In this document: positions 25,581 through 25,814 of the stretch, piece by piece | How the letters are laid out: each line of letters starts with the position of its first letter | How positions within the stretch are numbered: the first letter of the stretch is position 1 | DNA from: Patescibacteria group bacterium | Lineage (GTDB): Bacteria; Patescibacteriota; Patescibacteriia; UBA1558; GWA2-36-10 | Assembly: GCA_041665505.1 (NCBI GenBank) | Contig: JBAYIR010000004.1 | Location: forward strand, 6,797 to 70,796 | Length of the DNA stretch: 64,000 bases | Reading direction: 5' to 3' | Notes under the pieces: generated by a model | Seen by the model: the letters and a program-made list of their open reading frames with translations, nothing else | The model's database searches: none | Told to the model about the DNA's origin: nothing | Program-made: the position numbers and the translations under genes

Positions 25581-25814
25581 TCTCCTGTCATCCCGAGCGC
25601 AGTTGAGGGGTCTAGCTAGATTCCTGCCTGCCGGCAGGCAGGTCTCCACTTCGGTCGAAATGACAAGTGTCATTATTAATTAACAAAGATAATCATAGGC
25701 GACGTAAAATAATAAAAAAATTAACCCCGTTGAATGCTGCAAAGCAGCAGCGACAGAGTCGCTATTCAACAGGGGTAAAGATCGACCTATTATTATCAGA
25801 AAGGAAACAACAAT
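25581..25814 (+). ncRNA. highly structured GC-rich intergenic RNA element / atpE leader (multiple perfect palindromes and a three-stem junction)
   Basis: cctgcctgccggcaggcagg (20-nt palindrome), aatgacaagtgtcatt, and ccccgttgaat[gctgc aaa gcagc][agcgac aga gtcgct]attcaacagggg. Confidence 0.35.

Follow-up and report, generated by a model that had tools for sequence, protein, structure and literature searches.

The structured atpB-atpE spacer of a Patescibacteria ATP synthase operon as a probable mosaic of a conserved leader hairpin and palindromic inserts

Hairpins between cistrons are known as stabilisers of mRNA segments, as in the segmental mRNA stability of the Escherichia coli atp operon, the repetitive extragenic palindromic (REP) sequence between malE and malF, and the Rhodobacter puf operon. 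The translational enhancer of E. coli atpE is an unstructured U-rich region. REP sequences, including bacterial interspersed mosaic elements (BIMEs) and REPINs, are short imperfect intergenic palindromes that occur in multiple copies, in clusters or doublets and in both orientations, and are associated with RAYT (REP-associated tyrosine) transposases of the Y1/HUH type. They carry a short asymmetric motif at the hairpin foot, with GTAG as the hallmark, and show no target-site duplication. Bacterial miniature inverted-repeat transposable elements (MITEs) such as Correia, RUP and Nezha are likewise intergenic and have terminal inverted repeats, and the attC sites of integrons follow the consensus 5'-RYYYAAC...GTTRRRY-3'. 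In this study the spacer between atpB and atpE, the genes of the F0 subunits a and c of ATP synthase, was analyzed in a stretch of 64,000 nucleotides (nt) from a Patescibacteria (Candidate Phyla Radiation, CPR) genome (GenBank assembly GCA_041665505.1, contig JBAYIR010000004.1, positions 6,797 to 70,796), which is called the window below. The described RNA most similar in operon position is the ATPC motif, a cyanobacterial three-stem junction located between the genes of the A and C subunits (Weinberg et al. 2007, PMC1950547).

The 234-nt spacer (25581-25814) is best explained as a mosaic of three layers that differ in age and nature, a reading to which we give a probability of about 0.7. The layers are an AT-rich core hairpin directly in front of atpE and two inserts, designated elements A and B. 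The features of the spacer are listed below.

25688-25797, plus strand: core hairpin, an inverted repeat with the 5' arm GAUAAUCAUAGG-CGA, an A-rich loop starting with GUAAAA, and the 3' arm UCG-A-CCUAUUAUUAUC

25799-25805, plus strand: Shine-Dalgarno (SD) sequence of atpE, GAAAGGA, separated by one nt from the end of the core hairpin

25586-25665, no strand assigned: element A, an 80-nt imperfect palindrome TGTCATCCCGAGCG...CGGTCGAAATGACA of type 1, an inverted repeat 5 nt past the atpB stop codon

25623-25642, no strand assigned: 20-nt perfect palindrome CCTGCCTGCCGGCAGGCAGG at the tip of element A, arms 100% complementary and without a loop

25659-25674, no strand assigned: palindrome AATGACAAGTGTCATT, in which the right terminus of element A, ATGACA, is followed by a second TGTCAT terminus

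25721-25775, no strand assigned: element B, 55 nt, TTAAC-CCCGTTGAAT-(GCTGCAAAGCAGC)(AGCGACAGAGTCGCT)-ATTCAAC-A-GGGG, located in the loop of the core hairpin

An initial annotation had treated the spacer as a single GC-rich RNA element, possibly a processing or stability element raising c-subunit output, a riboswitch-like leader or a small noncoding RNA. The palindromes on which it was based were all found in place, namely the 20-nt palindrome, the second palindrome at 25659-25674, and a three-stem junction with an outer stem (25725-25735 with 25764-25775) and two inner hairpins. They were also more stable than expected by chance. The minimum free energy (MFE) of the spacer was -78.5 kcal/mol compared with -49.9 +/- 4.7 kcal/mol for dinucleotide shuffles (z = -6.1; none of 200 shuffles folded as well), and for the three-way junction alone z was -6.4. 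The GC content reached a peak of 0.53 over positions 25550-25649 in a window of 35% GC, while the atpB-atpE spacers of relatives were AT-rich and mostly 20-200 nt long. Two relations between these structures had gone unremarked: the 20-nt palindrome forms the tip of a longer, imperfect hairpin of 80 nt (arms 25586-25607 and 25644-25665), and an AT-rich hairpin (arms 25688-25699 and 25786-25797) holds the three-way junction in its loop. The GC-rich structures are real, but as a dedicated RNA element they are mostly something other than they appear; none of the three flagged features was conserved in relatives, the property by which the annotation itself had proposed that they be judged.

In an Rfam search of the whole window nothing reached the gathering score, and a cmscan search of 25400-26250 at E<=10 yielded only two chance-level hits, RMST_9 and CrcZ, and no ATPC. 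No family matched the spacer, the ATPC motif (which we take to be RF01067) included. There was also no match at the core hairpin in the loci of eight relatives or at the element B copies of seven metagenome loci. No supporting evidence was obtained for a riboswitch-like leader or a free-standing small noncoding RNA.

The comparison set consisted of 80 related loci fetched via AtpB, plus the loci of the closest proteins, and their spacers were aligned. AtpB identity to the window was at least 98% for L084/85 and L086-88, 94% for L083, 88% for L081, 75% for L001, 71-73% for L002-L004 and 51% for L022. In this alignment, which the initial annotation had named as a check, the core hairpin (25688-25797) was conserved, but the GC-rich stems were not. 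The hairpin forms around element B in both the MFE and the centroid structures of the spacer. It was present in all 9 close relatives as GATAATC.TAGG-CGACGTAAAA-(A-rich)-AAGATCGA-CCTATTATTATC, followed by GAAAGGAAA and ATG. Many of the 80 loci share the same layout, which comprises a variable stem, (G/C)CGAC-N, an A-rich loop beginning with YUAAA, N'-GUCG, an unpaired A and the complementary stem. In most of the motif-bearing loci the SD sequence GAAAGG was located 1-6 nt past the hairpin. These loci were labelled as Kuenenbacteria, Moranbacteria/Moraniibacteriota, Doudnabacteria and further Patescibacteria.

A covariance model, R1, was constructed from a seed of 11 well-aligned examples and used to search 507 kb on both strands. 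At E<0.01 it matched 18 loci, all on the plus strand and all in the atpB-atpE spacer, with one match extending 3 nt into the atpE start codon; seven matches were not part of the seed (L002, L009, L083, L081, L012, L035 and L019). In the R1 alignment 89.6% of the cells were standard pairs, compared with 72.6% in shuffles (0 of 500 as high), and the covariation score was 0.438, compared with 0.123 in shuffles and at most 0.078 with slid partners. As the alignment had been fitted to R1, the slide controls are given together with the result of RNAalifold, which on its own produced the same CGAC/GUCG helix. This helix was essentially invariant. The pair adjoining it was GC in five sequences, UA in five, AU in three, CG in two and GU in one, and two further pairs covaried. 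Each locus sequence folded into a long hairpin with an outer stem of its own. The distance between the half-sites was about 17-33 nt across loci and 77 nt in the window, and G.U pairs of the core hairpin on the plus strand were found in L003 and L019. The variable half-site distance, the covarying flanks and the plus-strand G.U pairs speak for a coding-strand RNA structure and against a DNA operator.

The core hairpin is likely to be a cis-acting stability or translation element for atpE, as we infer from these comparisons. As the oldest layer, common to several Patescibacteria lineages, it would favour expression of atpE over atpB in cis. It might act as a barrier to 5'-to-3' decay or as the mark of a processing site and thereby give the atpE segment a longer life than atpB, or it might keep the ribosome-binding site (RBS) free and offer an A-rich standby platform in its loop. 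Such a role would suit a complex in which each a subunit is accompanied by many c subunits, and it would parallel the segmental mRNA stability of the operons named above. The leader proposed by the initial annotation to raise c-subunit output is therefore compatible with a conserved, covarying hairpin just 5' of the atpE RBS, but this hairpin is none of the three features that had been flagged. The known intercistronic structures allow a subunit that is required in many copies to be produced in excess, and here the core hairpin and the conserved hairpin after atpE bracket the gene of the c subunit. The core hairpin differs from the E. coli atpE enhancer in its invariant CGAC/GUCG helix and in the YUAAA start of its loop, which suggests specific recognition.

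A second motif, RGTC(G/A)A-N1-4-ATTATTA-RTTAAT, was observed in 20 of 83 Patescibacteria loci lacking a window-type hairpin, lying 5' of the atpE ATG by 18-50 nt as a rule and by about 100 nt in rare cases. It was present in the spacers of L011, L017, L024, L029, L034, L038, L039, L043, L044, L048-L050, L052, L054, L056, L058, L059, L061, L065 and L078, and also at the 3' ends of atpB in L026, L040, L045 and L063. It resembles the 3' half of the window hairpin (GAUCGACCUAUUAUUAUC), which suggests that this half may be a sequence signal by itself.

Element A represents the second layer. Its arms form terminal inverted repeats (TGTCAT.../...ATGACA), and it folds on both strands (z = -2.5 on the plus and -4.1 on the minus strand). 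Type-1 elements (GTCATCCCGAGCG...CGGTCGAAATGAC) were found in the window and in L083, and type-2 elements (TATTCYGGRCTTGATTCAG...TTCAGAATGAC) in L084, L086, L089 and L081; the right-hand ends of the two types are similar (GAATGAC/GAATGAG). Strains with 98-99% identical AtpB thus contain the other element type; L086 has the same sequence as the window immediately downstream of the element, yet carries type 2. In L001 a type-1 element was present in the opposite orientation, L004 had none, and a further copy was located elsewhere in the atp operon of L047. The sequence 3' of element A is ATTATTAA. The element would have landed just past the atpB stop codon as a member of a TGTCAT...ATGACA palindromic repeat family and may later have gained the nested 20-nt palindrome at its tip.

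The 20-nt palindrome was missing from the otherwise matching element A of L083. The type-2 elements of L084, L089 and L081 contained other GC-rich nested inserts at their tips. An identical stretch of 24 nt including the region of the 20-nt palindrome was present in the atpE-atpF spacer of the distant L022. The palindrome at 25659-25674 was likewise present in L086 and, in altered form (ATGACAATGGTCATT), in L083, while L084 and L081 lacked it; its second TGTCAT terminus is probably a remnant. In L022 the CCTGCCTGCCGGCAGGCAGG palindrome is situated at the tip of an AT-rich hairpin (3829-3858), and the related GCCTGCCGGCAGGC occurs in the atpF-atpH spacer (4446-4459). Small palindromes of the CTGCCGGCAG type seem to recur in the spacers of CPR atp operons.

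When element A was deleted in silico, the accessibility of the SD sequence increased from 0.42 to 0.66, because the full-length fold pairs the SD sequence with a UCCU that directly follows the atpB stop codon. In the predicted MFE structure UCCU (25581-25586) pairs with AGGA of the SD sequence (25802-25805) and closes the whole spacer. This pairing was present in L083 and was not conserved in L084 and L086.

Element B, the youngest layer, is the three-way junction of the initial annotation. Its outer stem, CCCCGTTGAAT/ATTCAAC-A-GGGG, encloses the hairpins GCTGC-AAA-GCAGC (25736-25748) and AGCGAC-AGA-GTCGCT (25749-25763). Among the aligned relatives it was present only in the window, L084/85 and L086-88. 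L083, L081 and L001 had a clean empty site (...AAAAT|AAGATCG), and L002-L004 also lacked the element. The filled site reads ...AAAAAAA(TTAACCCCG...CAGGGG)TAAAGATCG and the empty site ...AAAATAAGATCG; the sequence 3' of element B is TAAAGATC. The comparison of filled and empty sites of close relatives identifies element B as a 55-nt insertion without a clean target-site duplication, and its boundaries as an indel in CPR genomes coincide with the boundaries conserved in the repeat family described below. Deletion of element B in silico left the core hairpin intact, and the mean unpaired probability of the SD sequence was 0.42 with and without it. The element adds about 28 kcal/mol of structure directly upstream of the SD sequence. 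An 11-mer search, a pattern search and a search allowing 2 mismatches per arm detected no further copy of element A or B in the 64-kb window.

Elsewhere, element B belongs to a widespread repeat family. A metagenome collection was scanned with the outer stem only (CCCGTTGAAT-N25-40-ATTCAAC-N-GGGG), and at least 119 contigs were matched, compared with a chance expectation of about 7 by our own rough estimate. Among the matches listed there were 124 instances with 92 distinct inner segments, between which the median identity was 43%. Nevertheless 77 of the 92 segments folded as two adjacent hairpins, compared with 7.4 of 92 for shuffles, and the mean MFE of the inner segments was -10.1 kcal/mol compared with -5.3 kcal/mol in shuffles. 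The copies in this set were mostly intergenic, with 17 of the 124 inside an open reading frame (ORF) of at least 90 aa, possibly spurious. Triloops, nearly all closed by C-G, accounted for 105 of 154 loops, and 51 of them were of the type C-GNA-G, an extra-stable mini-hairpin loop of DNA. When 2 mismatches per arm were allowed, about 200 elements were found in 536 kb of metagenome loci; counting both strands there were 415 hits compared with 14 in shuffles.

The 5' extension of the family is conserved as TTTAC or CYTGC, with TTAAC in the window copy, and the 3' arm contains a bulged T in 80 of 107 copies, with a bulged A in the window copy. Doublets are frequent, and the cargo between the arms is 25-75 nt. 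No orientation bias relative to neighbouring ORFs was seen in a rough count. The strands were also symmetric with respect to G.U pairs (25 and 27) and fold energies (p = 0.69). Neighbouring genes encode housekeeping proteins (NqrA, HtrA, MoeA) and toxin-antitoxin systems (PIN, MazF, HepT/MNT). Only proteins of these two groups recurred as neighbours of the copies, and no recombinase did. One host is clearly not a CPR bacterium, as the nearest named relatives of its NqrA, with about 52% identity, are from Marinimicrobia, Chlorobi, KSB1 and Calditrichia. Other CPR copies occupy other sites, namely in L056 (atpE-atpF spacer) and L068. One contig of a viral collection, judged by its equal length to be probably the same metagenome contig as L132, carries element B, and no plasmid match was found for it. 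Being multi-copy, intergenic and without strand bias, the family behaves as a REP/MITE-like DNA element, and its features suggest a single-strand DNA substrate of the REP/RAYT-like or IS200/IS605-like type. This is suggested in particular by the conserved 11-bp outer stem and the asymmetric 5' extension, which are combined with inner hairpins that are free to vary. The elements could accordingly be recognised as a folded single DNA strand by a dedicated REP/RAYT-like or IS200/IS605-like enzyme. Literature text searches with sequence strings of both element families returned only unrelated primer matches.

Several of the family members have unusual surroundings. About ten copies were present in the 8.6 kb of L122, where a doublet is repeated every 1.7-2.2 kb (4270-4418, 6454-6602 and 8133-8281) between small ORFs, one of them for a PIN-domain toxin. 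In each doublet a three-way-junction element of 47 nt comes first, and the 96-nt element behind it has a related outer stem, CCCGTTAAAT/ATTTAACTGGG; a tRNA gene is located at 8021-8093 of this locus. In L106, a contig that is not CPR-like, inverted repeats of 227 nt (1159-1385 and 3957-4183; 96% complementary) flank panB-panC-panD, and each holds one three-way-junction element. In L152 a tandem pair of three-way-junction elements (2198-2299) is followed, about 320 nt further downstream, by a near-threshold match to group II intron domain V/VI (2617-2691; 37 bits with a gathering score of 40, E = 0.001). Copies that seemed to adjoin an element-A-like GTCATCCCG were, on inspection, next to unrelated AATCATCC repeats.

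Like ATPC, element B is a three-stem junction at the same position of the operon, but this is a resemblance only. ATPC is conserved as RNA, whereas element B is a recent insert, a copy of a dispersed repeat that is absent in close relatives, and the part that is conserved here is a simple hairpin and not a junction. With REP sequences and BIMEs the B family shares small size, intergenic location, high copy number, clustering, occurrence in both orientations, an asymmetric foot motif and the lack of a target-site duplication. In contrast to REP sequences it has no GTAG, with TTTAC or CYTGC in its place (TTAAC in the window), it forms a three-way junction with two hypervariable inner hairpins and not a single stem, and it crosses phyla with an identical 11-bp stem. 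Elements A and B resemble MITEs in their terminal inverted repeats, their insertion polymorphism between strains and their intergenic location, and element B also in its variable cargo (25-75 nt); they differ in that no target-site duplication is present at element B and in that most copies of the B family, at 45-60 nt, are much below the typical size of a MITE. To our knowledge there is no parent insertion sequence for the B family. The arms GTTGAAT/ATTCAAC fit the attC boxes GTTRRRY/RYYYAAC, and copies 0.5-2 kb apart between small, often toxin-antitoxin genes are reminiscent of an integron. The order of the boxes is reversed, however (5'-GTTGAAT...ATTCAAC-3' on either strand), so that attC was rejected, and copies of the B family also occur between housekeeping genes and in both orientations.

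Two further candidates were considered for the spacer. TIGR arrays, which belong to the TIGR-Tas system and are known from CPR bacteria, consist of two alternating repeats of 8-12 nt with 9-nt spacers, repeated 5-15 times (PMC12045711). The spacer showed no repeated units in k-mer and repeat scans, and the variable segments of the B family are self-complementary hairpins. Hammerhead and other small ribozymes were dismissed for lack of the junction nucleotides and of an Rfam match.

Four other explanations of the spacer were weighed against the mosaic. That all 234 nt belong to a single RNA with a dedicated structure (for instance a processing module, a riboswitch-like leader or a small RNA) in which every GC-rich stem is functional is extremely improbable, and the comparative data largely refute it. 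The very low folding energy, the formation of the stems on the coding strand and the location between two genes whose products are required in one and in many copies per complex, respectively, would all suit such an RNA. It conflicts, however, with GC-rich stems that are not conserved even at 98-99% AtpB identity, with an element A whose fold on the opposite strand is no less stable and which has the reverse orientation in L001, with an element B that is a dispersed repeat without strand bias, with the lack of an Rfam match, and with relatives whose spacers are mostly short and AT-rich. Alternatively, the conserved core could be a signal at the DNA level, either an operator whose CGAC...GTCGA half-sites are bound by a dimeric regulator or an internal promoter of atpE, which we regard as very unlikely. 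The half-sites CGAC/GTCGA(C) do form an invariant inverted repeat, the 3' half resembles a GTCGA..ATTATTA motif without a clear partner in other lineages, and a weak promoter-like match (9/12) spans 25766-25793. But a dimeric DNA-binding protein would not tolerate half-site spacings ranging from about 17-33 nt to the 77 nt of the window; there is covariation in the flanking pairs, the outer stems remain complementary despite their different sequences, and G.U pairs are found on the plus strand. The promoter-like match was called within shuffle expectation (22 found compared with 8.8 expected over 2.5 kb), and 9/12 is the minimum score.

The remaining two explanations concern the inserts. Element B may have arrived as a mobile element and then have been co-opted in the clade of the window as an RNA module, an analogue of ATPC that stabilises the 5' region of atpE or recruits a factor. 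This is unlikely. It is favoured by the position of ATPC as a three-stem junction between the same two genes, by the amount of structure that element B adds upstream of the SD sequence, by its retention in every strain of the sample whose AtpB is at least 98% identical, and by the two substitutions between the window and L084, which both keep pairing as G.U on the plus strand. Two substitutions are too few for a test, however, and the family at large has no strand preference. Moreover, the ATPC model gave no match even at E<=10, relatives with 94% and 88% AtpB identity do without element B while keeping the core hairpin, and the predicted SD accessibility is the same with or without it. The small perfect palindromes, i.e. 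the 20-nt palindrome, hairpin 2 after atpE (see below) and the nested inserts in L081, L084 and L089, could also be non-mobile and have arisen where they are, through replication that slipped or switched template at the tips of hairpins, which seems rather unlikely to us. They are indeed located in the loops or at the tips of hairpins already present, are perfect or nearly so and differ between close strains. An identical 24-nt stretch in another spacer of the distant L022 is nevertheless hard to obtain independently, and generation in place leaves the family-wide conserved ends of element B unexplained.

The mosaic itself also faces objections. ATPC shows that a three-stem junction at the same operon position can be conserved RNA (PMC1950547). 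The substitutions in element B, both giving G.U pairs on the plus strand, are weakly compatible with selection at the RNA level. No mobilising enzyme for elements A and B was found in the window and the fetched loci; a tblastn search of these sequences with an IS200 TnpA query returned nothing below E = 0.97. Each element is present in one copy in the 64-kb window, so that its mobility in this host genome is a proposal. The inner helix of the core hairpin is weakened in the clade of the window, where GAUCGA replaces GUCGA and only CGA/UCG is paired, and the window itself matched R1 only poorly (19 bits, E = 0.1), with a misalignment caused by the element B insertion. In other Patescibacteria the GTCGA..ATTATTA motif has no obvious 5' partner, and the 3' half of the hairpin may therefore work as a sequence signal and not via the hairpin. 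Any effects of the spacer parts on processing, stability or translation are deduced from sequence and predicted folds.

With the mosaic as the preferred reading, elements A and B would be tolerated passengers mobilised at the DNA level, which may incidentally add to mRNA stability. Element B would have inserted into the loop of the core hairpin without target-site duplication. A more far-reaching proposal is that the B family represents an undescribed class of three-way-junction mobile elements, 5'-YTTRC-CCCGTTGAAT-(hairpin)(hairpin)-ATTCAAC-U-GGGG-3', which is read as folded single-stranded DNA by a conserved enzyme and is common to CPR and unrelated sediment bacteria. One copy would then have been built into an undescribed lineage-wide atpE leader motif, where it may serve as an RNA stabiliser converging on ATPC. 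This is a speculative combination that we regard as doubtful.

A GC-rich structured spacer in an AT-rich genome need not be functional RNA, and comparison of near-identical strains resolves this one into selfish or neutral palindromes plus one modest conserved hairpin. The core hairpin just 5' of the atpE RBS is not in Rfam and offers a testable handle on the a:c subunit ratio in reduced genomes. In the B family an identical 11-bp closing stem and an asymmetric foot are kept across bacteria of very different GC content and phylum, with inner hairpins that drift in sequence and not in shape. Such a pattern would need a conserved protein partner, which may represent a new system of single-strand DNA transposition or recombination, and the family could mark the exchange of DNA by CPR bacteria with neighbours or hosts. 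The candidate atpE leader motif of Patescibacteria and the cross-phylum repeat family, which was matched to nothing described, are modestly novel.

The genes around the spacer and the hairpins after atpE are as follows.

24356-26027 and beyond: gene order atpI-like (24356-24700), atpB, atpE (25815-26027), atpF, atpH, atpA, atpG, atpD

24678-25580, plus strand: atpB, F0 subunit a, an ORF of 300 aa; its homologues have PF00119 and are named F0F1 ATP synthase subunit A, Patescibacteria

25815-26027, plus strand: atpE, F0 subunit c, an ORF of 70 aa with its ATG at 25815; its orthologues have PF00137

26030-26075, plus strand: hairpin 1 after atpE, a fold with outer stem GAUUGUUU/AAGCAAUU and inner stem GUGCUCUC/GAGGGCAC, its shape conserved in close relatives

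26080-26097, no strand assigned: hairpin 2 after atpE, TCTCGA-CATAGT-TCGAGA, a fold and small strain-variable palindrome

The 300-aa AtpB is identical to an NCBI protein, FoF1 ATP synthase subunit a of a Patescibacteria group bacterium, and its relatives are sequences of Komeilibacteria and of the Parcubacteria type. The atpI-like ORF matched PF09527 weakly. A strong promoter-like site (TTGACT-17-TATAAT, 24299-24327) is located upstream of this ORF. In the atpB-atpE spacer no promoter-like site scored above 9/12 on a motif scan, and no terminator-like site (GC-rich stem plus T run) was found within 25581-25814.

The two hairpins that the initial annotation had placed after atpE were located at 26030-26075 and 26080-26097 (z = -4.1). 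The inner stem of hairpin 1 was altered on both sides in L081 (CCTGTCC/GGTCAGG) and L001 (CTGTCCTAGA/TCTAGGACAG), and the loop in L081 contained an additional GC-rich palindrome, CCGCCAACTGGCGG. With the leader hairpin on the 5' side and hairpin 1 on the 3' side, the c-subunit cistron is bracketed by two conserved hairpins. Hairpin 2 was present only in the window and L084, and it was absent in L086 (98% AtpB identity), L081 and L001. Both spacers flanking atpE collect small GC-rich palindromes, preferably in existing loops and at hairpin tips.

Upstream of the operon, a variable GC-rich block (23578-24230; GC 0.47-0.62) lies between an RmuC-like ORF (22492-23577) and the atpI-like ORF. It is shared only with L089, at 81% nucleotide identity, and strains with 98-99% identical AtpB have different DNA at this site. 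The block opens with a perfect 15-nt inverted repeat (23634-23667) and had no Rfam match. A minus-strand ORF of 131 aa in the block has no Pfam match and, with only 65% protein identity to L089, is doubtful as a gene. Next to the block, two back-to-back consensus promoter-like sites occupy 24228-24327, one on each strand. The minus-strand site (24256-24228) is TTGACA-17-TATAAT with an upstream TG, and the plus-strand site at 24299-24327 is overlapped by a terminator-like hairpin (24316-24336).

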